Positions 29,434 to 64,000 of a stretch of 64,000 nt of DNA are shown piece after piece (the first letter of the stretch is position 1; the number at the start of each line of letters is the position of its first letter). Source of the stretch: Schmidtea polychroa (taxonomy: Eukaryota); contig CM097887.1 of NCBI GenBank assembly GCA_044892525.1, positions 109,718,397-109,782,396 of the forward strand, given 5' to 3'. Made by a program: the position numbers and the translations under genes. Under the pieces are notes generated by a model. The model was not told the origin of the DNA, ran no database searches, and saw nothing but the letters and a program-made list of their open reading frames with translations.

Positions 29434-30261
29434 GACTCCTTTGTGTTCTTTTCCAAATAAATAAATAAATAAATAACCCAACACAAAATCTTTATTGACA
29501 CTGATGCAGTTACACTTTTACACTTGTATTAGTTTACTCACACTTGATACAATCAGGTTTTGTCTACACTTTTCAATTTGCCAACAAATCTCACGCAGGG
29601 GTAGATCTTCCAACGGGAGATGTCCCTTTCTGGTACGTTCGATTTTTAAATGGTTTAATTTCTACTAACTTTAATATTTCCTTTTTCGCTCTCGTCAAAC
29701 TTCTATTTTCTTTTCTTCGACCAACTGGCATTTTGTTTTCTTGCCAGTTGCTTTTATACTCGTTTGGTAATTGACTTTATTTTTGCCAATTATTTTTGGT
29801 CTTATTTCCCCCCGGGTTTCCTCTTGGAGGTCTAATTCAATTGAAGGGAATTGGCTCATTTTCTTTGACGGCGCTTATTACTTTTTATCCGGCTAAATTA
29901 ATTGCCTTACCAAAATTGGGTTTCTCCGGCTAAATTAATTGCCTTCCCAAAATTGGATTTATCAATTCGCTCGGGTTTTCCATTGTATCGGGTTTCCCAT
30001 TAGCTCGGGTTTTCCATTAGTTAATTAATTTTTGTTTTTTGTAATTTATTCCTTTTAGGGACCCCCATTGATTTTATTTTATTATAGCTGAACTCGTCTC
30101 ATTATTTAGCATCCGCCCATACCAGTTTCCCCAGAAAATATTAATTTTTTTAAAATTTTTGATTTTTAATTAATATTTTGTACTTTAAATTTTATTTGTG
30201 AATTTGGTGTTTTTGTCAATTTTTCACCTCATTTTTGTGCCTCTCTTGTTGAACCCCAACA
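29434..30261 (-). repeat. Element 1 3' LTR (lacks terminal 35 bp)
   Basis: Matches 39039-39904 apart from 6 substitutions, 2 single-C indels and repeat-unit differences; begins TGTTGGGG on the minus strand right after the PPT. Confidence 0.92.
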
Positions 30262-30275
30262 TATCTCCCCCTTTA
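30262..30275 (-). promoter_or_regulatory. Polypurine tract of element 1
   Basis: Minus strand TAAAGGGGGAGATA abuts the TG start of the 3' LTR. Confidence 0.9.
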
Positions 30276-30329
30276 ATTTAGATTCGACCTCGAATCTGCA
30301 TGTATATAATAAGTCTAATTTACCATACA

Positions 30330-30661
30330 GTAATAACAATAATAACAATAATCACAACAATAATAATAATAATAATGGATTGCTATCTACCTATTTTAGC
30401 TATTGCCTTTGCCAATGATTTTAAATCTGCGCTATTTTATTTTGAAATTTCCTTATTCGACTCCCCCCATCATCCTCACACTACTTAATATAAATAATAA
30501 TGACGATAATAACACTACCAATAATAATAATAATAATAACAACAATAATAATAATTATTATTATATTATGATTTTTTTTTGAATAATAATGATAATAATA
30601 ATACTGATAATAATTCCTAATGACCACAATAATAAGGATAATAACAATAATAATAAAAATA

Positions 30662-30715
<54 letters not shown>

Positions 30716-30720
30716 TCAAT
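30330..30720. repeat. (AAT)n / (AAC)n low-complexity tract
   Basis: Visible trinucleotide repeats. Confidence 0.9.
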
Positions 30721-32171
30721 TGGGAAAAATCTATTTTCCCTTCTAATTTAATTTTCTAATTTCAGCATTGAAATTTGATTATCGACTATCTATCATAACT
30801 AGATAACTCGATTTAGTTTTTCATTTTCATAATTTAATATTTTCTTTCAGGACGAAAGATAGAGGAAAACAGTCCAATCAAAAACTACTCAAAAGAAAAT
30901 CGGGAGAGCCAACAACACAACCAATCAAAAATCGCTACTCCTATTATTTAAGGTAATTTACCACTTTTTATGGATATATTATAATTGATAAAAATACAGA
31001 ATTTGTAATAAATATAGATTTTAATTCCAAAAACATGAATTCAGGAAATCAAGAAATGAGATTTGCCCATTCCATCAAAGATAACCATTGGTAAATTAAT
31101 TATACATAAAAATAACAAACTATTATTAGATTTCTTAATGTGAAAATGGGCGAAAATTAATATACATCCTGTAATGTCTAGATTTTGTAATTTCCCGTCA
31201 AATAAATGTCGCCCGTTCAATAGGTTCGATCGCTTACATTGTAATCAATAAGGCGGACAAATCGGCACTATTTATGAAGTCAAATTAAACCAAATTTGGC
31301 GAGTATAGAATAAGCAGCATTTATGGAATATTCAACGAATAAATTTCATGGCAAAGAAGTACAATGATCAATTTTGGTTTATATCAGATTTATATTTAAA
31401 TATATACATTCAATAACGTTTATACTTTGATTCATTTATATATGCTTAATTTTCTCGCTGATAGAGCAGCCACTAAAGAACAGAGACAGCTTTCATTAGA
31501 TATTATCGGTCGTTGTCTTAGTAAAATGGAGGATCAAATACAAACGGTAACTTACAATTTATATTTATCACAACTGCATTTAATTCTATGAAACTCATGT
31601 ATTCAATTTCATATGCAACGCTGGTGATATTTTATTCAATTATATTATTGCAATCAATAATATTACTATCGTTTTAGAATTTCATTTATTGCCAGCAAAA
31701 GATAAATAAAATTCTTAATCGCCAAAAAACCAGATTAAATAAAAACAAAATTATTTTAATGATATTATCGTTGCATTTATTGTCATTATTTAATTTTACA
31801 ATTCCAAAACAGACCTATCCTCACTCAACAACTGAAATTCCTGTCCGGATCACACATCTAAACTAAACACTACTAATTTCATATTATATCCTAAAAAGGA
31901 ACAAAATCAGTCTACTCGCCAAACAGACTGACTAAGCATTGCTGAATGGAATTAATTCATTTTAATTTTAATTGACAAATTTAGCATGAAGAATTGTAGC
32001 CGTATTTTTTGATTATCAATTACTTGAAATTAAAATAGCAACCGGCTCATCACAATGTTTCCAGTAATTATCTGATTATATTATATTATTTATGAAAGAT
32101 ATTCTCATTATTGGTACGGAAATATATATAATACTAAATTGTTTTTTTTTGACTCGCTTATTTTCTTCCAG

Positions 32172-32342
32172 GTTGGATGTATGAATTATCTGAGAAAATT
32201 AACAAGCCTTATTCCGCTAATTGGACTGGTGAACCGGAAATATCCAACTATTTTATTACAGTGCTCTATTTTACATGCAGCAGTTTGACAAGTGTTGGAT
32301 TCGGTAATGTATCAGAAAATACAGACTTCATGCTACTGGGAG
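32172..32342 (+). pseudogene. Isolated EAG-family (KCNH, ELK-like) K+ channel pore exon with an ~8-codon deletion at the start of S6
   Basis: TTCCAG acceptor and GTGAG donor; GWMYELSEKINKPY...LYFTCSSLTSVGFGNVSENTD-FMLLG (family consensus LYFTxSSLTSVGFGNVSxNTxxEKIFSICxMLIG). Confidence 0.8.
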
Positions 32343-32744
32343 GTGAGAGCTGGTTATGAAAGAAAATAATTATTCACCGAAAATTCCAGCTCTTTGTCGA
32401 GTTTTAATCAGAAGATAATTATTTTTTTTTGCATAAATATAACTCAGAAATAATTTTGTTTACTTCGGTGGGACTTTTATCTATAATGTAAGTATAATCA
32501 GGGTTGAAAACAAATCCATTTCATTATTGATTAATATTATGAATTAAATTCTAAAGAAAACAATTTTTCAAATTTATCGAATACCTTGCATTGTTAGTGT
32601 GGTTATTAGCTGTGATATATTGAAGTGATTAGAATTTATTTTAGGTCGAAATATTTCAATACGGTTTAATTATTTATTTAAATTAGGTTATATTTATATC
32701 AATTCAGCAATGTTAAAGGAAATATACCTAAATTCGTCATATAC

Positions 32745-34052
32745 CTAATTTGTAATCATTTTTAAATAAAAATATTTTCGATAGTCGACACAAAATCTTA
32801 AATCACCGTCCTTCTTTTTAACTACTACTATTGATGATGAGAATGGTGAGGAACTATCTCTTATTATATTGAATTCTTTCATTGCTTTGATTTGCCGATC
32901 ACTTTCTTCCTGATGTATGTATGGTATTCTATACGGCCGTAATTTTATTGGGGTTTCGTTGAGTAATGGTATTTCATGCTCAATCACCTGAGTGAATCCC
33001 AGATCATACTCATGTTTTGCAAATACATTCCTATATTTCTTTAATAATGAACCAAATTCTTGTTTTTGTAAATCCGTTAAATCTTTGCTTGTGATCTGAG
33101 GTTCTTTATAAATTTTTATATTTCTCGGTAACTTCTGAGCTTCCTCTGATTTGATTTTTGTTAATTTTCCCAATTTGGTTTTGGGCTTTATTTCAACGGA
33201 TCTTGCACTATAATTCGCTATTCTAACTGGTACTGACTTATTTTGGACTTTCACTACTTCGTCACACATAGGCACATCGTATTTTTCAACCAGCTTTTGA
33301 TTTGGCTCAAATATGTACTCCTCATCTGAGACCCTCATAACATCTGCATAGTATATTACTTCGCTTTTTGGTGGTACTTCCAATGTTTGGTTTAGAAATA
33401 CTTCCCCTACTTCAGGCACTATTTCACCCATTTGTCCTTTTATTAGTTTTCCAGTTCTCAGATCAAGAGAAATTCCATGTAGTTGCTCCATGACATCCAT
33501 GCCAATAAGACATTTTACAGGACTTTTTCTCATCACTGATACCCAATGAATTATTTCTTTATCTCCAATTATCAGTTTAACTTCTAATTTTCCAACAATA
33601 TTTAGTGCATTATGTGACATTGATTTAATAATGTGATTCGTTGGTTTTATTTTGGCTTTCTCCTGATACGTCAAGAAGCTTTCCGCTACTATAGTATGAC
33701 TTGAGCCTGAGTCTAATAAAGCTTCCACTTTTCTCTTGTTAAACTGTATGTTTATTCGAGGTTGTTTTCCTCCTATTACTGTTGTCATTAGTGCATAGCT
33801 GCATGGTAGACCAAGCATATTCTTTCTTTCAATTTCCGCACTCGTTGGTTCAATCTTCTCTAATTCTATTGTGATATTATCGACCGATTTCATCTCTTTT
33901 AGTTTTTCACTTGGATATACTGGTGCTGTTGGTCTAAATGTCGGGGTATACCATCTACTAAGAGTATCAATCCCGCTTAATTTTGGCATTGGTTCAAGCA
34001 AGAACCTGGACTCTGGCTCTACTTTACTCTTTGTTACACTTTTCGAAAGCAT
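32745..34052 (-). CDS. Element 1 pol 5' part: aspartic protease, linker, RT N-terminus (truncated after FCVDYRK)
   Basis: EALLDSGSSHTIV; IEHEIPL...PIKLRPYRIP...SSPFSSSIVVVKKKDGDLRFCVDYRK; homology ends ~32776. Confidence 0.93.
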   Translation of the reverse strand: MLSKSVTKSKVEPESRFLLEPMPKLSGIDTLSRWYTPTFRPTAPVYPSEKLKEMKSVDNITIELEKIEPTSAEIERKNMLGLPCSYALMTTVIGGKQPRINIQFNKRKVEALLDSGSSHTIVAESFLTYQEKAKIKPTNHIIKSMSHNALNIVGKLEVKLIIGDKEIIHWVSVMRKSPVKCLIGMDVMEQLHGISLDLRTGKLIKGQMGEIVPEVGEVFLNQTLEVPPKSEVIYYADVMRVSDEEYIFEPNQKLVEKYDVPMCDEVVKVQNKSVPVRIANYSARSVEIKPKTKLGKLTKIKSEEAQKLPRNIKIYKEPQITSKDLTDLQKQEFGSLLKKYRNVFAKHEYDLGFTQVIEHEIPLLNETPIKLRPYRIPYIHQEESDRQIKAMKEFNIIRDSSSPFSSSIVVVKKKDGDLRFCVDYRKYFYLKMITN

Positions 34053-36056
34053 TTCTGCTCCGATTCCCCGTTGTTATTATCATCATTATGATCGTCGTTT
34101 TTATCTTCCGACTGACACGTAGATTCCTCACTTTTCCGGCCATTTCTTAATTGTGCCCTTACTCTTGCCATTTCTTTAAATTGATGATCTGTAATAAAGA
34201 ATCTAGCCAACAATGGAATACAACCAATAATTAATTTCCATGACCATCCCGATATTGCATATATTCGATGTACTGACAACATTTGCGACACTACCACCTT
34301 TGCCGTTATTACAATCACGTAAATTCCAATTAAACCTGCACATGCTTGTCCCAAAAACATGAACTTGCCCCAAATCTTTTCCATCGTTTTATACTTAGCT
34401 CGTTTGAAATGATCAGGTGTTAGCAAATTTTCGTAATTTACTGTTCCTTCTCCATTCGGTAATACTGTGTCAATCATTTCTGAAATTATCCGTTCCTTTT
34501 TGGATGGAAACAACAAATTCCTTTGAGCTTCTTCGATATCTTCGCTTGCATACAAGCCCATTTATGCCATTTTGTTTAGTGATGTGAAATTTATCAGGTA
34601 TTCTAAATTTGTTAATTCTAGTTTGTCTGGAGTCTTGACCCCACGATAATCTGGTAAGGCTATCCATGAGTCGGTAGCTAATCGGTATAAAGGGGCTAAT
34701 AATCGATTGCATTGCAAAAGTTTTGGTTTAGTTTATTCATCAAGCAAGATTCTAGTTATCGGTTCCATAAATCGTACCTTTCCCCCAAAGCTTACTGGTA
34801 ATTCGTTCGTACATTTTTCGTATTTGGCAATTTTCACTGTGACTTCTTTGCATTTGTAACTGTATAATGCTTCTCCAAATATTCTCGCAAACACTCCATT
34901 TTCTGATATTAGCATAGGTGCTACTAAATTTGGATTCGTAATTGCCATCGCCATCCGATTTCGGAGAATCTCTTTATTCAACTTGCAATCGTTCAGAATC
35001 ATTTCTCTATATACATTTTCCATGATGTTTTGACTAAAATGAAACAAATAATCAATTTTATTATTAAAATAATGAGTAAGTTTAATGTCATCTCTATGAA
35101 TTTTAATTTTTGCTTCTTCCACAACATTTCTAGACACGTAAACACCTTTATAATTTGTTACATATACCATTCGACCACATTTATTTGTGATTGCCTTTTT
35201 TATAAATCGCATTCCATCTGCTGGTAACGTAGACATTAAAATTGTTCCCATTTGTTTTGTCCATACTGGGGTTGATTTAATGGTATTATTTGGTCTATAA
35301 TTCATATTGAAATTATCTGGTTTATCTCTAAACTGTTCTCCTACTAGCTCTTTAAAGTTCATAGTTTTTAAGTGCACTAAATTACACTTATTTGTTTCTA
35401 CATTATAAACAAGAATCGATTCCCCTGTTCGACAATGTGTTTGTTTCATATTGCAGAATGGATGAGTTTGTAATTTTCCTGTATCATCATCGAAAGCTCC
35501 TTCGAACTCTCTCAACTCCGTGAGATATTCTTCTAGCACTACTGTTTGCTGAATAATTTTACCGTTCATTTTATATGGTTCACCTTCACAGTCGCCATTT
35601 GCTTTCATAACTCCCTTTACAATTATTGTTTCTCGTATTCTATGGTTCAATTTTGCCTTTAAACGAATTTCTGGACTTATTTTTAATTCTCCTGTTTGAA
35701 ATGCTGCTAGACAGTTTTCTGGAAGCACCTCGACTGGCCTAGGTATCGCATGCATTTTTATGAGTGACGTATGGCTCCATTTACCACAGTAGAATACGCA
35801 TGTTGTATGTTTGACAATACACTCTCTCACTTGAGTTCTTCGCAAATCAGACTCTTGATACACATAATATTTGACGTCATTTTCTATTTTTAAACTGCTC
35901 GGACACGCACCTGGGCATTCCGACATATCTACTACCGAATAAACTTTTCCCATTTCAGTTTGGGAACAATCGTACGCAACTAAAGATGATGTCTGTGTAA
36001 TTATTGCACAAAACGTAATCACCATAAACATCGCCCATGGAAATATCAGTTTTTCT
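34034..36056 (-). CDS. Element 1 env: chuvirus-G/herpes-gB-like class III glycoprotein, two in-frame TAA (34733-34735, 34562-34564)
   Basis: Hydrophobic signal then LVAYDC; Cys pattern YCGKWSH, DCEG, GEALYSYKCKEV, CTNELPV...FMEPITRIL, GLYASEDI; C-terminal hydrophobic segments. The same frame continues through both stops. Confidence 0.75.
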
Positions 36057-36128
36057 TAGTTCTGGCTTAACTCTTTCATTTACTCGTCTTTTGGGTGGAC
36101 TCATTTCTTGCTTCTCATTTTTCTTTTC

Positions 36129-36566
36129 TGTTAGAGATGAACACAGTGTTTTCCAACCACCTTTTTCGTTTACCCAGCTCATTAAATATTCGTTTACTAG
36201 CCGGGCAGCGATGTCTATCAAATTTTCTAACTTGTCTGACCTTGCGAACGTATGCGTTCCAATTTCTAAAACAACATAAGTTAAAGCTATTATTATAACT
36301 TCCTTATTAATTTCATTTTTTGTTAACTTTTCAATTACTGATCTCTCGCAAAATGTATTCTCTTCGCCAAATTTCTGCATCACTTCAGGAAGCCTGTTCT
36401 TCATCTCTTTAACTATTTCTTTCAGTTCATCATCTCCCTCTATTTCTATGTCGAACATTGGATATACTGCTTTAACGAGATGTTTCAACATTTTCTTAGT
36501 TTCGTCGACGTCTTGTTCTAGCTTCACTAAATATTTCTTTATTTCATATAAAGTTCTAACTTTCCT
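36129..36566 (-). CDS. Bcl-2-like domain within ORF 35955-37088
   Basis: BH2-like LMSWVNEKGGWKTL (36141-36185), degenerate BH1 EINKEVIIIALTY, BH3-like IEIEGDDEL; helical spacing fits the Bcl-2 fold. Confidence 0.7.
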
Positions 36567-36758
36567 ATTTTTGATTTCACTATTTATCTCGCCTTCAGGT
36601 ACAAGTGGCTCTCCTTGTACGTCTGGTTCTGTGGACTGATCTTTGTTACCAGGATCTTTTTGCTCATTATCACTAACGATTTCATTAATTTCTTTATTTC
36701 CCTTAACTTTTTCATCTTGTTCCTCTGTGTCAGGCTTGTTAGACTCAATATTTACTTC

Positions 36759-37043
36759 TAAACTGACTATTTTTACTACGACTATATGGTTCACTAAATA
36801 TCCCACTCGTCCATCTCGGATCAAATATCCATTTTCATCCAGCTCTTGTGGTACACACCCACAATCATATAAGTATTCATCATCGTCAAGTTCTTCACTT
36901 TTGTACATTATTATAATAATTCCATCTTTTCCCAGCGTTTCAGCCGCTCTCTTCCGCAATTTTCGGACCTTTGCACACCAATGCTCATCTACATATTCCG
37001 TTTTTCCATACCCCTCATAATCTAATGCTATCAAAAATGGCTT
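36759..37043 (-). CDS. Ubiquitin-like domain 2
   Basis: KVRKLRKRAAETLGKDGIIIIMYKSEELDDDEYLYDCGCVP aligns to ubiquitin TIENVKAKIQDKEG...[20 protein letters not shown]. Confidence 0.5.
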
Positions 37044-37329
37044 TAACTCTACTCTTGCCTTTCTGAGCTCCTTGCCCAATCTTTGCAAAAAAACTTCTTA
37101 ATAATTTGGCATATCTGGTTTTCACATGTGAATATGGTCGTATTGCATTCACTATTTTTAGTTTATCGTTTTCCTCCATTTCTAATTTCTCAATAATCTG
37201 TAACTTCTCATTAATTTCATCTTCATCTCCAATATATAACGCATCATTTAATTCCTCTAATACCTCTCTTGAATTCCTTTTGTCTATTATTTCACTACTC
37301 ATTATTTCATCACTAGTAACTACATTTTC

Positions 37330-37542
37330 CATTTTTAATTCATTTGTACTTCCTGGTATAAATCCACAATCTACCAAAAATTCGTCATTTCCTAACAATC
37401 TCTCATTAAATCTCAACTCTATCATGCATCCTTCCTTTTTTTCTTTTAATTTATTCTTTAAATCCTTTACACAATCATGTGCCTCACAACGACAACATAA
37501 TACACTTTTATCAATCTCGTTTACTACTTCCACAAAAATGAA
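37330..37542 (-). CDS. Ubiquitin-like domain 1 within ORF 37015-38079
   Basis: FIFVE...EAHDCVKDLKNKLKEKKEGCMIELRFNERLLGNDEFLVDCGFIPGSTNELKM aligns along the whole ubiquitin pattern. Confidence 0.65.
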
Positions 37543-38041
37543 ATCTAACCCTGTTTTCTCTCTCAAAGTTTTTCCAAATATTTTCATTAATTCTTTAATT
37601 TCGTCTTTATACTTTGGATTCATATTATAATAGTTAACGCACAAGCTAATTACACTTTTTATCTTTCTCATACTAAAAGATATTTGACTTAATTCTCTTA
37701 ACGATTTGATTACTTTAGCCGACTCTATTTCATTATTTCCAATTAGTTTTTCAATTCTGGTCATTATCATTGTTGCTTTTTCACTTTCCAAATCATCTTT
37801 TATAACTCTCCTTTTCGACTCCTTTTCATTTAATTCCTCTTGCGACTCATACATCATGTCATTATTGTAGTCCTCTTCTGATTCAAACTTTGACATCAAT
37901 CGATCCAAACGTCGACCCATTTCTCTCACTTCGCTTTCAATTCTTTCATTAAAATTATCTGGCTGAATAAAAGCTACATTATCCATCTGCGGTTTGTCAC
38001 TCTGAAACCTAATCGATTTCTTTAATATTGGCCTTTGGAAT

Positions 38042-38536
38042 TTATCCATTTCTTGGACATGATCTGGCCATGTGTCCATAACTTCTGCATGAATGACATT
38101 GAATTTGTCCTTGTAGATTTACTTTATCTCTCTGCGGTGATGTTGATGTTGATCTTGACCTGGCAAAACAATTTCGTGACACATGCCCTTTTCTTCCGCA
38201 ATTAAAGCATTGCAAGTTATCATTAGTTCTCTGATCACTAATATTCGCTTTAGTGAATCTTTTATCAATTTGTTGCCACGCTTCTCTGGCTGCTCCTTTC
38301 AGGTATAGCGGTAATCTTTGCACCATTATCGATTGGCTCCATCCATAGGCTGTCGCATACATATAGTAATCTGCCATGAAGTCTACAAATTCCAACGGAT
38401 CTCCCCCATACTGATCTACAGGTAGTTTTTGACAACTCGCATAGTCACTGCCTTCCTTGCCATTCCCCACAGAAACTGTGGACACGGGTGTTTCATCATT
38501 ATTATTTGTATTATTAACTTGTCTTTGGGTACTCAT
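38042..38536 (-). CDS. Element 1 gag (short; capsid fragment plus two CCHC knuckles)
   Basis: ATG at 38536; YGGDPLEF...GWS...RLPLYLKGAAREAW; CFNCGRKGHVSRNC and CHSCRSYGHMARSC. Confidence 0.9.
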   Translation of the reverse strand: MSTQRQVNNTNNNDETPVSTVSVGNGKEGSDYASCQKLPVDQYGGDPLEFVDFMADYYMYATAYGWSQSIMVQRLPLYLKGAAREAWQQIDKRFTKANISDQRTNDNLQCFNCGRKGHVSRNCFARSRSTSTSPQRDKVNLQGQIQCHSCRSYGHMARSCPRNG

Positions 38537-38981
38537 TATATTCTCTACTAGTTTTTGGCTTCTCAATTTATAAAATGATCTGGTTAACACAGGTTTTACT
38601 CGTCTAAAATTTAAAGTATTACAATTACAAAATTTACCTTTCGTTTTAATTTTGACTTTTCAAAAATCAATATCCACAATTATTATTTTCACTAATCTTC
38701 AATAATAAAATCACCACTTTAATAATTTTCCAAAAATATTCACCACTCTTAAATCAAATTTTTCACTTTAATATATGTATTTTTTATCTTTTATCAATTT
38801 ACAATACTTTCCCAATCTCAACAAATTTTTATCAACTTTTTATCACGTCAGTATTAATCGATATTTCAATCAAATATTTTCACACTTTAAACGAATTTTC
38901 ACCAACTTTGGAACACGTCTGTATTATTCGATATTACAGTCAAATACTTTCACAATTTCAACAAATTTTCACCGACTTCAG

Positions 38982-38999
38982 ATCACGTCGGGCTCACCA
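38982..38999 (-). promoter_or_regulatory. Primer-binding site, tRNA-Trp
   Basis: TGGTGAGCCCGACGTGAT, 4 nt after the LTR end; complementary at 17 of 18 positions to the metazoan tRNA-Trp 3' end as I recall it (AUCACGUCGGGGUCACCA). Confidence 0.85.
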
Positions 39000-39003
39000 A
39001 ATA

Positions 39004-39899
39004 TGTTGGGTTTTTAATTTAAGTCAGTACTACGGTCTGACTCCTTTGTGTTCTTTTCCAAATAAATAAATAAATAAATAAATAACCCAACACAAAATCT
39101 TTATTGACACTGATGCAGTTACACTTTTACACTTGTATTAGTTTACTCACACTTGATACAATCAGGTTTTGTCTACAATTTTCAATTTGCCAACAAATCT
39201 CACGCAGGGGTAGATCTTCCAACGGGAGATGTCCCTTTCTGGTACGTTCGTTTTTTAAATGGTTTAATTTCTACTAACTTTAATATTTCCTTTTTCGCTC
39301 TCGTCAAACTTCTATTTTCTTTTCTTCGACCAACTGGCATTTTGTTTTCTTGCCAGTTGCTTTTATACTCGTTTGGTAATTGACTTTATTTTTGCCAATT
39401 ATTTTTGGTCTTATTTCCCCCGGGTTTCCTCTTGGAGGTCTAATTCAATTGAAGGGAATTGGCTCATTTTCTTTGACGGCGCTTATTACTTTTTATCCGG
39501 CTAAATTAATTGCCTTCCCAAAATTGGGTTTCTCCGGCTAAATTAATTGCCTTCCCAAAATTGGATTTATCAATTCGCTCGGGTTTTCCATTGTATCGGG
39601 TTTCCCATTAGCTCGGGTTCTCCATTAGCTAGGGTTTTCCATTAGCTTGGGTTTTCCATTAGTTAATTAATTTTTGTTTTTTGTAATTTATTCCTTTTAG
39701 GGACCCCCATTGATTTTATTTTATTATAGGTGAACTCGTCTCATTATTTAGCATCCGCCCATACCAGTTTCCCCCAGAAAATAGTAATTTTTTTAAAATT
39801 TTTGATTTTTAATTAATATTTTGTACTTTAAATTTTAGTTGTGAATTTGGTGTTTTTGTCAATTTTTCACCTCATTTTTGTGCCTCTCTTGTTGAACCC

Positions 39900-39904
<5 letters not shown>
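39004..39904 (-). repeat. Element 1 5' LTR (901 bp)
   Basis: TGTTGGG...CCCAACA terminal inverted repeat; TATAAAA near 39361-39367 and AATAAA near 39100-39105 on the minus strand; five 17-bp U3 repeats. Confidence 0.95.
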
Positions 39905-53400: not shown

Positions 53401-55879
53401 AAACATTTCTTCTCCATTATCGCCATTTAAATTTTAAGATTAATATTCATTTTCATTGTAATTTGTCCATAAAATCCGTGGTTATGTTTATACAAATTTT
53501 TGATTTCTCTGTCACTATAGATACACACATTTTATTAGTGCCGATTAATATGTTGATGTTTAACATCTCGTTTCATCGATCTGAGAATATTTTCGATGCG
53601 TGGTAGATTTGTATATGCTGCATCACTACTTCATCCGGTTCGTGTCAAATCATCAGAGATCTTTATGCTTCATTGGTCGAACTTAGTGTTGATCTCCTCG
53701 ACGAAATTACTATCGTTTGGTCAAAGTGCATATAATGCTACAGGATGCTCGAAGTTCGTCATTCAGCGTGATGTTTACCTTTAACTCTACAACGGTGATC
53801 AATGTTAATGGAACTTGTGATTGTGCCTTGAGCTTCCTACTTTCCCATCAATGATTAAAATGCATTTTGATGATTCGAAATGGTTCGTTTACGAGTATCA
53901 GTGATCTCTAATGAAGTCATGGAATGCCTATCTGAAGGAACTTTTTGTGATGGATCGTCCATTGTCTATTACTACTAACGATCTTTATCTATGGTGTATT
54001 CTACATTCTTTCGGCACACTCGATTACGTCGAACGAAACTCGCCACAGTGGTCACGAAGTTATCGAAGGATGTTAACTATATATGCGCTATGAAGGTCTC
54101 TATACTTTATTGCTAAATTGAAAAATGTATATGGACATGTTGGAAGCTGTCTTCACTGTCTTCATTCACAATCTCATTTTTCTGATTTCATGCACCTTGG
54201 TGATAAAAATGATGGCACTATACCACATCATAAAAATTACTACAGCGACGGACTCGCATAGACCCTCCAGCCCGTGGTCTGATCAGCTGAAAATAATTGA
54301 ATACTCCAGCTGACCTATTGGCAGAAAGACCCGAAGATCACTTCCACCGTGACCACACTGGGTTCCATCACCATTGTTCTTCAAAATTAAAATCGAAAAA
54401 TCAAATGAATAAGCATTAAATATGAATTGCCAAAATACCTATATGAATCTAAATTATTAACTATTATCAATATCGAGAAAAGGATGAACTGTTTATACAT
54501 TTATTTGATGGAATTTTAAATTACATAAGTTGCTGTTAATCATTACAATAGAAATGAATAAATAAAAAGAATAACAAATTACTGAATGTCCCGTGAAATA
54601 GTATACTGCTATCGGTAAATAATAGGTTTATTACAATAGCTGAACTGTAGAATTGATTGAATATAGTGAATGATTCGTCTGTCTAGAAGTTCTGTAAAGT
54701 TAAGGTTTTAAACAGTGAAAAAATTCTTTGGAAGGGAAACCCTTATATAGTTTTTTGGCTATGTCTTTCGACCAATCAGGATTGAGTATCTGTGTAAGTA
54801 TTAATATATTTTGATTTGGTTTTCGTTTTTTATTTATCATCATTTGATTGGTCACTTTTTATTTTTTATTTTAAATAACAGATTTTATGATAATTATTGC
54901 TTTTTATCGATCCTGATTGTTCACTGGTTGGTTTTTATACACCGTACTCGTTTAGGTGTTTTCTGCGGTTTATGTCTTTATTCTCTTTTCTTAGTAATCT
55001 GTTTATTACGTGCGTTTGCTATTTTATTTCTTGTGATTTCGATTTTAATTTTAATTTTGTATAATTTAGTTTTTTTTGTTATTTTCTTTAGTTTGTTTTG
55101 GTTGGTGTTTTATTCTTTATTTATTTTCACTTCTTGCTTTTTATGAGCTATTGTGGGTGTCCCAACTGACCCTTTCACTGCTTTTATCTTTTACTTTTAT
55201 TTTTTATTTTATTACTTTTATTTACTTTTATTTTATTTATTTAATTTTAACTTCTAGTCCAACAGTAAAATTGACATCATTTAATGGGCACAGATTGCAA
55301 TAAAGGGAGAGGGAAGAAATGGATTAGAGTAATTACAGATGGCTGAGTAGAAATTTAAAACCACGATAAAATTTTTTCGATTTAGGACGTGCGGAGCCCC
55401 AAACAGAGAGACGCAATATCTCTGCCAGATCACAAAGGAGAAAGAACTCCAGAAAAATAAGAGTTGACAAAACTAGAATATTTAATAAATTTCACATTGT
55501 TGAATAAACTGGCACAAAAAAAGACTATTTCACTATAAAATAGTCCAATGCAGCGGTCGGGGAACTTTTTTAGCCATTACTCCAAAATATTTTTGGGTAG
55601 GTCACTATTTCCCCTACATTCTGAAAAGCAAAAAAACCAAGGTATATTATTTATTGAATTAATTGGAATTTTTATAAAAACTAGCTGTAAGTAAATAATT
55701 AAAACTATTTATTAACATAATTCAAACGCTTTTAGGTTGTAGAAAAATTATGTTGTTTTATTTTTGCTAAAATGACTTTAAAATTAGGACTTTTTGATCA
55801 ATATGTGATAAAAGATGAAATGGATAAAAAGACAGTGTTGACAATTATGAGTTATATTTTGTTAGAAATTGTGTCATAC

Positions 55880-56936
55880 TGTTGGGTTTTGGATTATTTC
55901 AAGTCGGTTCTCTCTGACTCCTGGTGTTCTTTAAATTAAAACAATGAACGACCCAACGTATATTGAAACAACAGGTTCACAATTTATTATCACTCTACAA
56001 TTACCAATCAAAGTTTTACACGATTCTCTGCTCGGCGTTGATGCTTTGCAAACAAACAATATTCACCTTTTGATCCTTTAGTTCTGTTGACTCTCGTTTT
56101 CCTCGGTTTCGGTTTGGTTTGATCTCTTTTCTCCTTTCCGTATTCTTAATTCTATTTCTTCTTTTCCCTACTTCCCTAATTCGTTTACCACTTTTCCTAC
56201 AGTCTAATTCTTCGAACCCTAGCTGAGGCAAAATGCCGATTTTCTCTGATTTTCCCTTTGCTTATATACTCCTCGAAATCAGGATGACAAATGGTTATTG
56301 CCGAGCCAATCTTTCGTTTGACATTTTCTCCTACGTGTTTGCTTCGGCTGTCATCCATAATGGTCCAACGAATCCAGATAATTAATGGCCCTACCGGTCT
56401 TCCTACGCGCGTTATCTTCTCCTTACTCTTTTCCCATTAATCATTGTGTCAAACTAATGGGCCCAAATCTTCCTTTTGTTTGCCTTTCTTCTTGTTTACC
56501 CAGCTCGGGTTTCCTTTATCTCTCGGGTTCTCCATTGGCTCGGGTTTCCCATTAGCTCGGGTTTTCCATTAGCCAATTAATTAATTAATTAACGTTTTCT
56601 GTTTTCATACGTTTGAATGTTTTTCGACCCTTCCGAACCCTTTTCTGATAAATCCCTAACCATCATCTTGTTGACCATTAGCTAATCTATACCTGTCCCG
56701 TTTTTCCCATTCGATTTCGATGATTTTTCCATTTATTGATTTTTCTCGGATTTCCGGATTCTCGCCTTTCGTAATTGCTTTTTGCATTTTCTAATACTGT
56801 TTCCATCGCACTTTCCTTTACTATTAATTCTGTGCACGATCCCGCTTTTATTTGCCATTTTTCCTCGCTTACTTTCCATTTGAATTATTATCCTAAATTT
56901 TATTTAAATTTTAATTTTAATTTACAGACCTCAACA
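55880..56936 (-). repeat. Element 2 3' LTR (1057 bp)
   Basis: TGTTG...CAACA termini; left end TGTTGGGTTTT...AAGTC.GT...TCTGACTCCT..GTGTTC homologous to 39004-39053; four 17-18-bp GCTCGGGTTTTCCATT-type repeats at 56502-56570. Confidence 0.85.
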
Positions 56937-56950
56937 TATCTCCCCCCTTA
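56937..56950 (-). promoter_or_regulatory. Polypurine tract of element 2
   Basis: Minus strand TAAGGGGGGAGATA abuts the TG start of the LTR; nearly identical to the element 1 PPT. Confidence 0.9.
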
Positions 56951-57758
56951 AAAAATTTTTTCGTCCTCGAAATTTGTGTTTTAATGGAAAGTTTTGTTAA
57001 CATTAAATGTCATTATTATTCCTATCAACACAAATACCATTATTATTGTTATTTTTAATTTAAATATTATATATTAAAAGATATTCTTTAATAAGCTGGC
57101 AATTTTCCTGAATATATTTTTCTATCTTTTGGGGAAGGCTATTGGGGTAGGTAGGGATAGCAGAAATTAAACCTTTATAAATAATAGAATGTTATTTCTA
57201 AATTATTTATACTAGAAAGCAGCTATAATAAGTGGTTTAGGTCTCCTGTAGATCATTGTGGTTTGTCGACATGAGAATATGTGTGCACATCATGCAGGAA
57301 ATTACTTTTACCCCAAAGACTGAAAATACGGTTATAATTACAATAATACTAATAATTTATTGGCAAACTGCTTAAAATATTAGCCAACCAAAAATGATTG
57401 AGTTAATTTTGAAAATATGTAGAAACACGGCGGACCCGAACCCCAAAAGCAACTCTGCTTCAACAGAAACCAAAGAACCGACAAAATCTGGCCAAACCAC
57501 GGAGCCATGGGACCTCCGCTCACCAATCTGGGTATGTATGCAGAAAATAGCACGAGTACTGCTAATTTAACACCCTATGTAAGTAAGCCGTTAATTTTTT
57601 TTTTTTTTTTAATTTACACTATATTATTAATTAGTCATTTTTAAATTGTATAATAAAATATATATTCATATGGTAATTTTTTTTCAAATCCCACAGTTCA
57701 AATGTCAATACTTGTAAAATAAACACGGATTTTCCACTAAAAAAATTGGGAACAATTA

Positions 57759-58118
57759 TGCAGGTAGTCCGTTGTCAAATAATTAGACGGTTTTCCCACA
57801 GTGTCAGATTTATTTTTATCCCCTGTAAATTTGACAAATCAAAATCCTTTGCCGACCAAAAAAGTTATTTTAAAAATACGTCAGATTGAAACACACAAAC
57901 TTTCATATTGAATAGAAAATTCACTATATTTCACAACCTGCAGGTAATCCGTTGTCAAATAATTAGACGGTTTTCCCACAGTGTCAGATTTATTTTTATC
58001 CCCTGTAAATTTGACAAATCAAAATCCTTTGCCGACCAAAAAAGTTATTTTAAAAATACGTCAGATTGAAACACACAAACTTTCATATTGAATAGAAAAT
58101 TCACTATATTTCACAACC
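57759..58118. repeat. Tandem duplication, 2 x 180 bp
   Basis: Copies start at 57759 and 57939; one substitution (GTAGTCC/GTAATCC). Confidence 0.95.
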
Positions 58119-58989
58119 ATATTTCATTTTGTCTCCTATTAAAATAAATAATATATTCACTGAAATTGCTCTCTATTTATTATCTATTGAGAAGAAAGAA
58201 TGGAGAGAAAAATTCCTTCGTGTGGTGTTGCAGAGTAAGGGAATTATCATTGGTCGAGATTTTGTCGTGTCATAACTTTCTGCTCTTTCTGAGTCTTTAA
58301 ATGATGAAGTATCGATATTTTGTTTCATTACTTTTTTTCCCGTACACTAAGTAATCAATCTATTGCTTCATTCGAATTTCCGGAACAATCGACATTTTTG
58401 TGGCCAATAAATAACTCATAGAGAACACTTAAACGAGTTTAACGAAAAAAACACTTATCTATGGTTGACGATTGGGTTATAAAAACCATGTATTCTACCA
58501 AACGTCGAAGAAGAAACACAATGGTTAGATTAATTTTTTTTTTGTATTAATTGTATAAAAATTAGCACAGGTTTGAGATATATATTTACAATCTGTCGAT
58601 CAACTCTCAGAATTCCAGCTCAAATCGAAGGTTCAACAATGAAAACAAATGTTTTTTTTCATTATTTTAACAAATTTCTTTGGGTTTATTAATTTATATT
58701 TTTAAGATTGAAGTAGGTTTATTATTTATTCATTTTATGTAACAATTATATGTGATGTTATGAAATATCGGCAATTATAAAGCAATTCAATGATTTGCAA
58801 AAAAAATTGTTATTAATCTTGCTATTTACTAGCATGAGGATTTGAGTGGATATAATTGAGCATTTAAAATAATATTTAGGCATTTGTGTAATGCTTGCAA
58901 ATTATAATTGGAAATTATTTGAAAATTACCAAGGAATAATAATATTTGCAGTTCCCTGAAATGTTAGAGATATCAATTTAAATGAGAAA

Positions 58990-59270
58990 TAAACTTGAAA
59001 AATTACTACTACTACTACTATTATTATTACTACTATCAATATTATTATTATTATTATTATCATTATATATTGTTATAATTATTGCTGCTATTACCACTAT
59101 CATCACCATTATTATTATCAATATTATTATTTTTTCAATATTATATTATTATTATTATTATTATTATCATTATATATTGTTATAATTATTGCTGTTATTA
59201 CCACTATCATCACCATTATTATTATCAATATTATTATTTTATCAATATTATTATTATTATTTATCACAAT
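58990..59270. repeat. (ATT)n low-complexity tract with an internal higher-order duplication
   Basis: Trinucleotide repeats; block ATCATTATATATTGTTATAATTATTGCTG.TATTACCACTATCATCACC occurs twice. Confidence 0.9.
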
Positions 59271-61580
59271 CCTACTCCAATTATCGCTATTATCGGGACG
59301 TCTATTAATTGATGTAAATCATTTTTTGTCGGGACGTCTATTAAAAATCAAGTAGACTAACGACAGTCTGGTAAGGTTATCGGGACGTCTATTAAAAATT
59401 AATAAATCAAGTAGACTAACGACAGTCTGGTAAGGTTATTGTAGTTTCAGAGTATTGAAATTAATTACTTTAGGATATAACAGAGTACATTTAGTTTATT
59501 ATTTCAGGATATTAAAAAGATATTCCTGCATTTTGAAAGTGTATATTGCTCCTATTTTGGTTATGTGGTGAGAATAACAAGAAAAATTTTTTTTTTTTTA
59601 GTATCTGATTAAATTATATTTTGTTACAATTTGCATTTTTACAATTTTTGTGTGCGAGTTTATGAATTCATTAATTGATTAGACTAGCGACTTTGGTGGA
59701 AATCAACAGTAAAATTTATTGAAAATTTCTTATAGCTGTGGTTGTTGTTATTGTTCAAGATGAATACGGTTTACCAAGAATATGGATAAAATTGTGGTTA
59801 ATAACAGGGTTGAGCAGTTAATGGGATATGCTTGTGTGTTTGTCTGTGTGTGTGTGTCTTTACAGTTTGATCGATTTTTATGTGCAAAATATTTGTCTAA
59901 TTTATTCCCAGTCGCAAGGTAATTCATTTATTCTTTTTGTTTATGTTTTTTCTTTCATCATTATTACCATTATTATTAATATTATAATTTAAAAATAATT
60001 TTTTGTTATTAATAACTTATTGGTTTATTTCGCTCGCAGCATGGTAAAAAGTTAATCTCCCCCGCACCGACCGACTGTTTACTCAGCCTGATAAGGTATC
60101 TGCGATGAACATTAATATTCCGAATGAATTTTTTCTTATCCTGCGGTTTTTGACGTAGCCGATACCGATAGGCTCTATAATTAATTACCCTGTGGTTTCT
60201 TACGTAGCCCTGCTGATAAGCTTTCTAACTAATTACTCTGTAGTTTGTCAACGTAGTCTGTACTGATAAGCGTTCTATATAAGTTTCTGCTTTACCACTT
60301 TTCGTTAGTTTTGTCTTGCCAATCTTGAAGTAAGCATTTTATATTTTATTTTTCTTTTCATATTTTTTTTTGAATTTTAGTAACGCCATCCCTCAATTAC
60401 TATGGACGTAAGTGATTAACTATCTTTTGTTATTTTTTGTATTTGTGATTCTTTTTACCATGCTGTCCTCAACTACCCTCATAGTAACCGAACACTTGCA
60501 ATCGTTGTCCAGGGTAGCCAAACCCCGGTGATTGCAAGTGCTCGTGTTGCATATTAAATTAACTTATTGATGCTTATTAAATTAACTTATTTACTTTTTA
60601 ATTTTAATTCGTTAATTTGTTTATGCAACTACCTACACTCATGTTTTGGGTCATATATTTTTGATTTTTGATTTTGTATTTATACTAAAAGCAAACCTCT
60701 AATTACAGCTACTCGTATTTTTCTGACAATTTTAGCCGTATTTATACTTATTAATTTATTACGTAATTCTTAAAATCAATTACTTCCCTGCACTAATTAT
60801 TTGTCGAGGGCGCCATGGTACGGAGTTTTACATAGTATTTATTTCGTTTTTTTCTTTTCAACCCTTACTATTTTAGGCTGTGCCAGAACCTAAGTTTGAA
60901 CATCTCGATGTTATGCAATGGTTATTTAACTGCCATACTAACAGGTTTTTTAATTTCTTTTTCAGGGTCCCTTTACCACCGCGTCGAAAGGGATTGAAAC
61001 GTACCTTTGCCTGTGTGGATACAGGCAGTAGGTTTGAACGACGCCCGCCTTGCAATGTACGCAGGGAATGGGACTGTGGCATCCAAAGTCCCGTTCTGTT
61101 GGACTCTGATGACGAATAAACTTTGAATAAATGTTCAGCATACCTTTGTTTTTAATTTATGCTAGAAAGGGTGGGGTAATTGTGTCCCTCTTCGCGAATA
61201 GTTTTTTGTTACTACTAATGTGAAATTATTCCTTACTTATTTATAATTTTGTTCTCTCGCCCCAGTGGTTTACCCATTGCTATATAGTTATGCTAATTCA
61301 TTAATTACTAATCAGCCATATTATTTATTTCTAATGCTCATTTAAGGTAGTCATTTCATTATTTGCAACATTTATTTGAGTTATCCTATTTGCTCGTTTA
61401 ACTTTGTTCATTTTTATCTATTATTCATTCATTTAATTTATCACTTTTTTACTTATTTATTTATATCAATTCGTTTATTCATTTGATTATTTGTTAATTT
61501 ACTTATAATTATTTAACTATTATTTTTTTTTCTCGAGGACGAAAAAACACCAACAGGGTCCGTTTAAATAATTTATTTTT

Positions 61581-61826
61581 TTAGTCTAATTGATTTATCT
61601 CACCATCATCTTCCGATTCCTCCATTTCTTCTACTCTCATTCGATACATCGCGAAATCGGCTTCGTGTTGAAACAATAAGATTTCCAAACGGTCCAACCG
61701 CCTTTTCAGACGGAAGTTTTCTTCTTCCAAATCTGTTATTCTGCCCTGCATGCTACGAAACTTTTGTTTTAGTTCTTGCGTACTTGTTTTACACTTTTTG
61801 CATGTCATCTCCGAGGCTTCTTGCAT
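61581..61826 (-). CDS. Element 2 accessory ORF, 81 aa, leucine-zipper-like coiled coil
   Basis: CxxC then ITDLEEENFRLKRRLDRLE; acceptor TTTAATTTCAG 3 nt before the ATG; AATAAA just after the stop. Confidence 0.5.
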   Translation of the reverse strand: MQEASEMTCKKCKTSTQELKQKFRSMQGRITDLEEENFRLKRRLDRLEILLFQHEADFAMYRMRVEEMEESEDDGEINQLD

Positions 61827-62002
61827 TCTCTGAAATTAAATGATAGTTATTTTTTTTTGTATCACTCTTTATTCGCAAAGCATCAACACCTCGCTTCGAA
61901 TCTCAAACAAATTACACAGTTCATCCTATGGTACTTATAAAACATGCACATTGTTAATATAAATGTAATATATTTTTATACACTATTCATGCAGATCACA
62001 AT

Positions 62003-64000
62003 TTACAGTCTTGTCTCATAATATGATGGTGGTTGAAGGATAGTTAGTTGTCTCTCTTTTACACATATCAAGATGGTGATGATTATGAATGTTATTGATA
62101 AGATGAGAAAACCTGTTATTAAAATGTAAATGAGATATTCACAATAGTTGACTGTCAAATCCGAATTTATCATCATTAGTTTGTTTGAGTTAGGTTTTGT
62201 CGTCTCTTGGGTCGGTAATTGGAAAGGTGATGTGGTTGTATATGATTTTCGTTTCGATTCATTGATTGTCTTGACTTCCACGAAAACTGTTTGCCATCTG
62301 CCTGGATCGGTTATCCATCGCTGATATTTAACTGTTAATTCCCATGCCGTCTCTAAATCAGAAGTGTAAAGTGTAAAAAAATGATTACCGGCATCTAATA
62401 TAGTCAGGGATTTTTGTTTGTAGATAATAACAACTCTTTCATCATTTCCTGATTTTCTATATATCGTTACCGGTCCATTTCCAACACTCAGGGTTATACG
62501 ATTTGACTCGTCTCTGAGATAGATAGACTGGGTCTCACTCTTAAATCGTGACCATTGGTTTCTCACTACCGTTCCATTTTCGAGGCATATGTTCTCGTAG
62601 TAGTTTGCATTAACTGAATAATTTTGATTCATTTTCAATTTCTCGTAGAGGATAAATGATTTTCGCGAGTTAAGGGTGTCGACATTTAACCCTTGAAATG
62701 TGATTCGCACTTTCACCAAGTCCACTGGCTTCCAATATATATTGATTCCGTTTATCTCTGGTTCTATCTCGATCAAGTTTCGCATCTCTTTTGTGTGCAC
62801 TTCTATCGGAATTTGCGTGTACCACTTTGACATATTCTGTCTCAACAGCCATTGGTATTTGTAATTTGGCTTTAACTTTCGTACCGCAACTATATCTTTA
62901 TCATAATTCAGTTCTACCACTGGTGCCGTATTGTCTAGTAAATTAATAATTTCTATTTGGTCTGCGATCTCGCATTTACAGCTCCATACTATATTTGTTA
63001 GAGTGGAATATATATGTATTTTCTCCATTCCTCGGATTTTGTTTACCGCATATGGTAAATCAATCTTTTTGCCGCTCGCAACTGTTACTAACATCAGCAT
63101 TATTGCTACATATAATATCTTATTGATGTAGCTGACTGGTGTTGGATTTTTCGTGAATTTCTGTTTCAATTTTGTTTGACCCGTTACTTTATTCTGCTTG
63201 GATCTTAAGGGGTATCTAGATTCATCTTCCTCTGGCACTAGTTTACATCGATTTGCATGCACAATCATCGGGTTAGCCTTTTTACTCCTGAATGGTAATA
63301 ACTTCAAATTGGTTTCGGTGGTGTCGCACACTTTGTAGGGTCCTTTAAATGGTCTTTGCAATTTAGGCGATAAACCTTTGAGAGGTTCCGGTCTGTTCAG
63401 ATATACTAGATCTCCAATCTTTATGCCATGCGCATGTGCTTTTTTATCGTATGATTCTTTATATTTCTCTTGGTTGTGCTTTATTGTCAAACCGGCTTTA
63501 GTCCATACTGACTGCATTCTTTCTTGCATCAATGCTTTATAATCGGGTATCTCCATATATTGTGAAATTGGTGGTTGGAATTTGAGATCAATCGGCATAT
63601 TATTTTTCCTTAAATACATCAAGTAAAAAGGGGTCTCTCCTGTACTTTGATTTACTGCATTTCTGTAGGCAAACAGACACGGCTTTATGAAGTCGTCCCA
63701 ATCTTTCTGTTTTCGATTCACATATGATGAGATCATATTTATCAGTGTCCCATTAAATCGTTCCACCAATCCATCAGTTTGTGGATGATATGGTGACGTA
63801 TTCAATTTCCAAATTCCAAATAAGTCTGTGATTGATTTAAACATCTCGCTTTGAAAGTTCTTTCCTTGATCAGTTAACAATTTCTTTGGAGTACCATAGC
63901 GAAATATTATGTTTTCCACAAATATTCTAGCAATCGTATCTGCTTTTTGGTTTGGAATAGCGTATGCTTCTGGCCATTTGGTAAAGTAGTCACAAAAAAC
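62003..64000 (-). CDS. Element 2 pol C-terminus: integrase (DDE, GPY/F) fused in frame to an FN3-like type I membrane protein
   Basis: VFCDYFTKWPEA...LLTDQGKNF...YHPQTDGLVERFN...FKGPYKV; then ILYVAIMLMLVTVASG (63071-63118), FN3-like repeats, S/T stalk, TM and PPSY; no stop between the domains. Confidence 0.9.
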   Translation of the reverse strand, partial: VFCDYFTKWPEAYAIPNQKADTIARIFVENIIFRYGTPKKLLTDQGKNFQSEMFKSITDLFGIWKLNTSPYHPQTDGLVERFNGTLINMISSYVNRKQKDWDDFIKPCLFAYRNAVNQSTGETPFYLMYLRKNNMPIDLKFQPPISQYMEIPDYKALMQERMQSVWTKAGLTIKHNQEKYKESYDKKAHAHGIKIGDLVYLNRPEPLKGLSPKLQRPFKGPYKVCDTTETNLKLLPFRSKKANPMIVHANRCKLVPEEDESRYPLRSKQNKVTGQTKLKQKFTKNPTPVSYINKILYVAIMLMLVTVASGKKIDLPYAVNKIRGMEKIHIYSTLTNIVWSCKCEIADQIEIINLLDNTAPVVELNYDKDIVAVRKLKPNYKYQWLLRQNMSKWYTQIPIEVHTKEMRNLIEIEPEINGINIYWKPVDLVKVRITFQGLNVDTLNSRKSFILYEKLKMNQNYSVNANYYENICLENGTVVRNQWSRFKSETQSIYLRDESNRITLSVGNGPVTIYRKSGNDERVVIIYKQKSLTILDAGNHFFTLYTSDLETAWELTVKYQRWITDPGRWQTVFVEVKTINESKRKSYTTTSPFQLPTQETTKPNSNKLMMINSDLTVNYCEYLIYILITGFLILSITFIIITILICVKERQLTILQPPSYYETRL

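Follow-up and report, generated by a model that had tools for sequence, protein, structure and literature searches.

A viral-type fusogen and a predicted FN3-like membrane protein share one polyprotein in LTR retroelements of Schmidtea polychroa

Introduction

A single envelope gene, whose product both binds and fuses, is what descriptions of retroviruses and errantiviruses generally give. Two LTR elements in a 64,000-nucleotide stretch of the Schmidtea polychroa genome (GCA_044892525.1, contig CM097887.1, positions 109,718,397 to 109,782,396; hereafter the window) raise the question of whether a retroelement can instead carry a fusogen and a second surface protein in the same polyprotein, and what the second protein would do. 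An earlier note on this DNA had seen the 5' half of such a polyprotein in element 1 and the 3' half in element 2, and had proposed that the intact family encodes both membrane proteins.

Results

Element 2, which extends past the end of the window, has a total length of 17.5 kb and both of its LTRs, the 5' one outside the window:

55876..55879: target-site duplication ATAC, 4 bp; second copy beyond the window, after the 5' LTR
55880..56936, minus strand: 3' LTR, 1057 bp, TG...CA, 1056/1057 identical to the 5' LTR
56503..56582, minus strand: 17-bp repeat array, common to the element 1 LTRs
56937..56951, minus strand: polypurine tract
56980..61580, minus strand: long 3' region
61581..61826, minus strand: 81-aa coiled-coil-like accessory ORF
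62003..62059, minus strand: cytoplasmic tail of protein X, ending -ETRL, and stop codon
62060..62143, minus strand: transmembrane segment of X, hydropathy 2.8
62144..63070, minus strand: ectodomain of X, with three predicted FN3 domains (about 63043-62786, 62785-62513 and 62512-62255), a low-confidence stalk and 4 N-glycosylation sequons
63071..63136, minus strand: internal signal-sequence-like hydrophobic segment of X, preceded by an RYPLRS motif
63137..64000, minus strand: integrase core and C-terminal part
72291-73347 (window-equivalent; L002:2291-3347): 5' LTR

Past 64000 the frame holds RNase H, RT, protease, fusogen (L001:5243-6847), Bcl-2-like and ubiquitin-like domains and Gag zinc knuckles, so that the fusogen and Bcl-2-like domain anticipated upstream of RT are indeed present. 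Beyond the integrase core the same frame continues into a hydrophobic segment, an ectodomain of ~310 aa and a transmembrane segment, which together with the tail make up protein X (~375 aa). In this copy the polyprotein is broken at three places, by two stops and one frameshift. Part of the 3' region (~57000-59700) differs among copies, with simple repeats and a 180-bp duplication, and RNA reads are almost absent from it. The several accessory ORFs first proposed for element 2 reduce to one: the 81-aa ORF, which has no significant match in a Pfam search, is intact in 10/10 copies, and no other is intact in all.

Element 1 lies wholly within the window:

29434..30261, minus strand: 3' LTR, truncated at the U5 end
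30262..32770, minus strand: 3' region, common to a family-1 sub-lineage
about 32171-32343, plus strand: captured KCNH potassium-channel exon within the 3' region
32770..32774: junction of an internal deletion
32745..38659, minus strand: broken polyprotein, with Gag zinc knuckles, Bcl-2-like domain, fusogen, protease and start of RT
34034-36055, minus strand: fusogen
38982..38999, minus strand: primer-binding site, the complement of the 3' terminus of host tRNA-Trp
39004..39904, minus strand: 5' LTR

Element 1 lacks X because of its internal deletion, estimated from two family copies at ~6.6 kb, which removed most of RT, RNase H, integrase, X and an exonuclease ORF. That ORF, a separate 3' DEDD exonuclease (ISG20L2 match, E 1e-10), occurs in families 1 and 3 and not in element 2. 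A reading of element 1 as two insertions around a host exon was dropped, the same region being found inside other family-1 copies.

Copies elsewhere in the genome bear out the proposal that both membrane proteins belong to one polyprotein. X is found after the integrase in 12 of 14 copies of the element 1 family that were chosen by their fusogen, and conversely the fusogen is found at all 21 family-2 loci chosen by X. Several copies retain a single open frame; among family-2 copies other than element 2, 5/20 have all markers in one. The genome holds at least 125 matches to X, and open frames of at least 3,333 aa occur at 11 of the 125 matches listed, in keeping with a polyprotein frame of ~3,300-3,440 codons in the clade. 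Fusogen and X co-occur in seven lineages. In a distant family (RT 52%, fusogen 45%) the corresponding position is occupied by a shorter homologue of X (hhalign E 2.2e-5), from which the membrane-distal domain, the best conserved elsewhere, is seemingly missing.

The two elements were also thought to be sister lineages, which is roughly right (RT 89%, gB 69%, X 39%), but at least three further families are equally close or closer. As claimed, their LTRs share their ends, beginning TGTTG and finishing CAACA, and their polypurine tracts are near-identical; the 18-nt tRNA-Trp primer site is identical, and the U5 ends resemble each other over ~45 nt. The shared 17-bp array aligns between the elements (E 1e-19), but its assignment to U3 may be wrong: a read pile-up begins at 56691, a tentative RNA start that would place the array (56503-56582) in transcribed R. 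The proposed U5 stem and pre-PPT hairpin both exist, but they fold no better than shuffled sequences (z -0.3 to -1.9). Since local BLAST finds no LTR-to-LTR match outside the array, the elements represent distinct families. No conflict with support is seen among the integrase, fusogen and X trees, and the RT tree does not resolve the branching order.

Element 2 has the marks of a Ty3/gypsy (Metaviridae) element, namely two TG...CA LTRs, target-site duplication, primer-binding site, polypurine tract and protease-RT-RNase H-integrase order. The gB/Monjiviricetes-type env (PF24664, E 1.6e-92) sits between Gag and Pol, flanked by a signal and a transmembrane segment, and as in Burro-like layouts Ubl and BCL2-like domains stand ahead of the in-frame env; here neither Ubiquitin (E 6.5e-4) nor Bcl-2 (E 0.0017-0.011) reaches its Pfam cut-off. 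By eye, the fusogen of element 2 matches the Smed_errantivirus_2 row of Chary & Hayashi (eLife, PMC13524379) at 245/251 residues (about 98%; 6 differ) in the part of that source compared, and the fusogen of element 1 shares roughly three-quarters of its residues with the Smed_errantivirus_1 row. This near-identity to a catalogued element places both elements, from their sequences, in what is likely a planarian Ty3/gypsy errantivirus clade. An AlphaFold model of the fusogen, from 8 sequences, reaches pLDDT 30, too low to bear on a class III fold, and a complex prediction of its ectodomain with X, run without alignments, scores 0.00, a value that carries no information on binding.

X itself is predicted to be a tandem FN3 protein. 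Its structure model is all-beta with three domains (pLDDT 74.6); the best PDB matches in Foldseek are the FN3 arrays of fibronectin, Tie2 and CD45 (E 7e-10), the best 50 rows all being FN3 arrays, and a structural comparison (VIA) gives Z 9.7 and rmsd 4.5 over 165 aligned residues. A language-model search (Atlas) returns fn3 as best match at 0.92, with a low recognition score. Sequence searches are less telling: Pfam fn3 is called in 0/7 X proteins, and a PDB sequence search gives no match below E 0.17. Homologue searches found just one protein, P0002 (22% identity), for whose genomic context a metagenome scan found nothing; none was found among longer proteins, which is weak evidence.

A class I PDZ ligand has the pattern [ST]-x-[VLI] at a C-terminus on the cytosolic side, and as a pattern the X tail matches it. 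Tails end [ST]-x-[VL] in 6/7 lineages, which are related and so not independent counts, and in P0002, against a background of 2.2%; both copies read from the remaining lineage lack such an end. A PPSY motif, considered as a late domain, was dropped because it is confined to family 2.

X is under purifying selection, yet diverges fast. In the four most diverged copy pairs dN/dS is 0.13-0.17; in close pairs it is 0.25-0.99, on few changes. Identity to family 2 is 39-51% for X, 69-78% for the fusogen and 89-92% for RT, and X and Bcl-2 are the most diverged domains, as expected for X of a host-facing protein. Of the indexed sequencing runs that contain the stretch, none is recorded as RNA; in raw reads mapped directly, RNA of a close relative spans the region of X, and a 10.7-kb contig from another dataset covers the whole coding region. 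No well-supported spliced RNA joins the LTR or leader to X, or to the fusogen start, among the joints listed from ~2% of each run.

Discussion

Paramyxoviruses (F with H/HN/G) and herpesviruses (gB with gD, gH/gL) pair a fusogen with a second surface glycoprotein of type I/II. The attachment proteins of these viruses come from separate genes and are no FN3 arrays, whereas X is FN3-like by prediction and part of a polyprotein, and attachment is its proposed role. The element family, and its layout with env between Gag and Pol, are already published. The GAG-ENV-POL HSV/gB-type errantiviruses have the same env-before-pol order and many near-identical copies (PMC13524379); as far as word searches show, the main text of that source does not describe an X-like protein, and the parts of its supplement consulted list neither LTR nor tRNA type for these elements, both of which are identified here. 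The planarian gypsy element Burro/GYPSM1 likewise encodes Gag, Ubl, BCL2-like and mononegavirus-like env in frame before protease, RT, RNase H and integrase in a single polyprotein (Arkhipova & Yushenova 2019, PMC6431247). Burro is larger than 30 kb and has an ORF of 4,873 aa with MATH, BIR and ankyrin domains, whereas the elements here are ~17.5 kb with 3,300-3,440 aa; Pfam finds no MATH, BIR or ankyrin domain in them, and element 2, at 17.5 kb and 3,334 aa, falls outside Burro in the strict sense (>30 kb, ~4,900-5,100-aa ORF). The parts of that paper seen mention no membrane protein after the integrase. In the Drosophila MDG1 group, sORF2 is, according to the portion of PMC11952523 consulted, also a membrane protein other than Env that serves cell-to-cell transfer, but it is a short fusogen, FAST-like, of elements that have no Env, whereas X stands alongside Env. 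The DEDDy exonuclease ORF3 of rotifer LTR elements (PMC5408684, seen in part) resembles the DEDD ORF of family 1 and concerns accessory cargo, not X. The listings from our literature searches contain no work on FN3 proteins of LTR elements and none on X.

That the single frame of this clade encodes Gag, a viral-type fusogen, Pol and an FN3-like X, with X a contact or attachment protein aiding cell-to-cell passage, is the reading we consider fairly probable. It draws on the domain order, the open frame of several copies, the co-occurrence in seven lineages, purifying selection and RNA across X. Hydropathy maxima coincide with both signals and both transmembrane segments, and from this profile the chain would span the ER membrane four times, at signal 1, the fusogen transmembrane segment, signal 2 and the X transmembrane segment, with both ectodomains lumenal and glycosylated and with the X tail, Gag and Pol on the cytosolic side. 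Cleavage by signal peptidase and the element protease would then release the parts in equal amounts. A PDZ-type tail would sort X to scaffolded membrane, for example at cell junctions, a role with a precedent in the HTLV-1 Env tail, which binds hDlg (PMC3395148, consulted in part). From the producing cell or particle, the FN3 rod would bind a surface or matrix partner on a neighbouring cell and so bring the fusogen to its target. Weighing against this reading are the lineage without a PDZ-type end, the higher dN/dS of close copy pairs, the domain seemingly missing in the distant family, the decoy role frequent among FN3 proteins of large DNA viruses, and related class III fusogens that work without a partner. 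In its fullest form, which we offer tentatively and regard as somewhat doubtful, this would be two-glycoprotein entry by a recruited cell-adhesion module, with Pol flanked in one four-pass polyprotein by a class III fusogen and by an FN3 adhesin bearing a junction-targeting tail, the two jointly forming a virological synapse between cells.

FN3 proteins of large DNA viruses are often receptor decoys, and the main rival to adhesion and sorting at cell contacts, which we favour, is that X is host-manipulation cargo (receptor decoy, dominant-negative mimic or superinfection blocker) displayed on the element-bearing cell with no part in entry. The fold fits cytokine receptor, receptor phosphatase and Tie2 ectodomains as well as fibronectin, the tail has no signalling domain, FN3 proteins occur in Lymphocystis virus and anguillid herpesvirus, and other host-directed cargo (Bcl-2-like, ubiquitin-like, ISG20-like exonuclease) is aboard. 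True accessory cargo comes and goes, as the exonuclease ORF does, whereas X keeps one position in all seven lineages; it would moreover be made in equal amounts with structural proteins, and no host gene of similar sequence surfaced in a genome search swamped by element copies. We consider cargo rather unlikely. Still less probable is that X is a virion receptor-binding protein that both binds and triggers the fusogen, in the manner of paramyxovirus H/HN/G or herpesvirus gD-gH/gL. Such a trigger would fit the obligate co-translation and shared inheritance of X and fusogen, and the glycosylated ectodomain on a variable stalk. The related class III fusogens found in rhabdo-, borna- and chuviruses, by contrast, bind and fuse without a partner, so that the Monjiviricetes-type fusogen of these elements may not need X; gB-type errantiviruses are mostly described with one env in the sections of PMC13524379 seen, and the conserved PDZ-type tail, which would act in the producing cell, points at least as much to a function at that cell's membrane.

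We reject, as hardly credible, the ideas that X is a captured but neutral piece of host DNA or an artefact of assembly. Family 1 does take up pieces of the host, the KCNH exon among them, but X has kept its open frame, signal, transmembrane segment and tail despite saturated synonymous sites, with dN/dS as low as 0.13, and neither its genomic copy number nor the long contig from a second dataset is expected of an artefact.

If the contact reading is true, a second surface protein, conserved, with the fold of an animal adhesion module and placed behind the integrase, would be another route to transmissible retroelements. X would then offer a handle on how these abundant and transcribed elements spread from cell to cell in an animal in which the lineage is carried by stem cells, and the hypothesis is amenable to single-protein study in a laboratory model animal.

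Results

Element 2, of which the window holds the 3' half, proved to be full length, at 17,468 bp. The window lies at G000:C3:109718397-109782396 in its genome, and the 10 kb after its end contains RNase H, reverse transcriptase (RT), protease, fusogen and Gag zinc knuckles. The 5' LTR and the element's LTR in the window agree at 1056 of 1057 bases, and a 4-bp target-site duplication is present. The fusogen is a Monjiviricetes-type fusion protein (PF24664, E 1.6e-92), while matches to Bcl-2 and ubiquitin are weak. The fusogen and Bcl-2 that the earlier note expected upstream of RT beyond 64000 are thus there, the latter as a weak match. This copy is defective, with two stops and one frameshift.

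Features of the window and of one further element copy
29434-39904, minus strand: element 1, seen in the earlier note by its 5' half
55880 to beyond the window end, minus strand: element 2, 3' half within the window
4593-5399, plus strand: protein-kinase open reading frame (ORF)
13774-15237, plus strand: 487-aa open frame without convincing Pfam match
18168-18782, plus strand: piggyBac-like transposase fragment (PF13843)
52377-53009, minus strand: hAT transposase fragment (PF05699)
L039:8382-9869 (another element stretch), minus strand: DEDD exonuclease ORF, with a homologue at L044:5068-6945

The earlier note had proposed that an intact family encodes both a class III fusogen and a fibronectin type III (FN3) membrane protein in one polyprotein, and copies elsewhere in the genome bear this out. 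Twenty further family-2 copies, the best non-self matches among 40 scored of 369 candidates, were selected by X, the membrane protein encoded behind integrase, so that the fusogen is the part under test; all 20 have it together with X. Five of the 20 carry all markers, Gag through to the tail of X, in a single frame, and frames of at least 3,333 aa are open at 11 of 125 X matches. Conversely, the element-1 fusogen served to pick 14 family-1 copies out of 40 candidates scored among 836. The FN3 protein suggested for this family lies behind integrase in 12 of them, with 37-40% identity to element 2's X. One exception has a deletion after RNase H; the other ends after the fusogen in the stretch read, with an X about 20 kb onward (L058), a gap that is probably an insertion. 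In element 1, the stretch from RT to the 3' ORF was lost through an internal deletion at about 32770. One family-1 copy (L075) lacks protease, RT and integrase through an in-frame deletion and keeps fusogen and X in one frame, and another stretch (L043:364-7899) has, as judged by eye, Polinton/Maverick-like ORFs within a family-1 element.

Seven X-bearing lineages in total emerged from genome searches that used as queries P0002, the only outside homologue of X found, and a divergent X encoded in a nested element. The most distant one fully read has 52% identity in RT and 45% in the fusogen; its X is shorter and aligns to domains 2-3 (hhalign E 2.2e-5, probability 76).

Elements 1 and 2 agree in their LTR termini and polypurine tract and share the 17-bp array; both have an 18-nt primer site that matches tRNA-Trp of the same genome at its 3' end. 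Their LTRs gave no local match outside the shared features. The likeness described in the earlier note stands for ends, array and tract; the small stems exist yet are no more stable than shuffles. Genes for this tRNA-Trp form a tandem array of 284-bp period (L094, G000:C4 near 55.02 Mb), a pattern with 821 matches genome-wide.

X lies behind integrase and an RYPLRS motif; it has a hydrophobic segment, then an ectodomain of 309 aa, a strong transmembrane segment and a short tail. Sequence searches of Pfam and PDB did not recognise it. An AlphaFold2 model from a 12-row alignment predicts three all-beta domains (mean pLDDT 74.6; residues 12-274 confident). The top Foldseek matches are FN3 arrays, namely fibronectin, Tie2, CD45, neogenin and receptor phosphatases (best E 7.3e-10), with low whole-chain TM-scores (0.2-0.3) that we attribute to differing inter-domain angles. 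VIA-align against fibronectin 9-10 gave Z 9.7 and rmsd 4.5 over 165 aligned residues, and rmsd 2.5-3.5 for single domains; an Atlas feature search returned fn3 (0.92) with a low recognition score. The donor gene cannot be read from the predicted fold. In each of the five families scanned, RYPLRS precedes the X signal (near 63200 in the window); in family 2, RYNLRS stands at the start of Gag (L002). We take both to resemble viral nucleosome-binding motifs.

Single-cell RNA reads from a close relative (a single study, with about 2% of every run read; mostly 95-99% alike) are spread over the entire coding region, X included, largely in one orientation, and about 200 per run lead from LTR to primer site. 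The reads show transcription of the family in that relative, and not of the window copy itself. No well-supported splice to the X or fusogen start was listed in this sample, consistent with expression from the polyprotein. Fifteen reads from two runs join the LTR to a site just upstream of an 81-aa ORF (window 61888 and 56612), at most 2 nt from GT and AG sites, possibly reflecting spliced mRNA or a deleted copy.

An exon of a KCNH (ERG-type) potassium channel, together with intron flanks, lies antisense within the 3' region in a sub-lineage of family 1 (window 32171-32343, plus strand; also L059-L065; window copy against hERG, E 5e-14), host sequence taken up and copied by the element. Families 1 and 3 have an ISG20/ISG20L2-like DEDD exonuclease as a separate 3' ORF (E 1e-10), which element 2 does not.

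Discussion

The element family is already known. Compared by eye, the element 2 fusogen differs at 6 of 251 residues from the Smed_errantivirus_2 row in the supplement of PMC13524379, a match on which we also base the placing of the host among planarians. That paper describes flatworm elements with gB-type GAG-ENV-POL order and, in the portions consulted, names neither fibronectin nor accessory proteins. Burro encodes a Ubl-BCL2-env-Pol polyprotein (PMC6431247, section 7); that section describes nothing after its integrase, where the elements here have X. No publication on an FN3 protein carried by an LTR element turned up in the literature searched, partly as excerpts, and the second membrane protein appears undescribed there.

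Its role we infer. The polyprotein would cross the membrane four times: its two ectodomains would face the ER lumen, and Gag, Pol and the tail of X would stay in the cytosol, with Pol a loop held at both ends until cleavage. Identity of X between families is 39-69%, with synonymous sites saturated. Among eight pairs compared, dN/dS lies at 0.13-0.17 for the four with the greatest divergence; four close pairs, which show few changes, range over 0.25-0.99. That X is a neutral relic we regard as very improbable. Conservation falls from the distal domain (53%) through the proximal domain (34%) to the stalk (13%). Integrase, fusogen and X trees show no supported conflict, and the RT tree gives no resolution (10 rows). 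A strict paramyxovirus-like trigger of the fusogen would be another role for X, and we think it unlikely.

The C-termini of X differ by lineage (-ETRL, -ETFV, -ETTV, -ETWV, -MSQL, -MTTL; -STLV in P0002, at 22% identity), and by pattern we take them to be a class I PDZ-type motif. It ends X in six of seven lineages, the seventh being without it in both copies read, against a background frequency of 2.2%, although the lineages are related and the counts not independent. X might serve as a receptor decoy or host modulator, the main rival reading, which we hold to be the less probable. On balance we lean towards a reading in which the tail would direct X to scaffolded membrane and X would bind a partner on a neighbouring cell, from the cell surface or from a particle.
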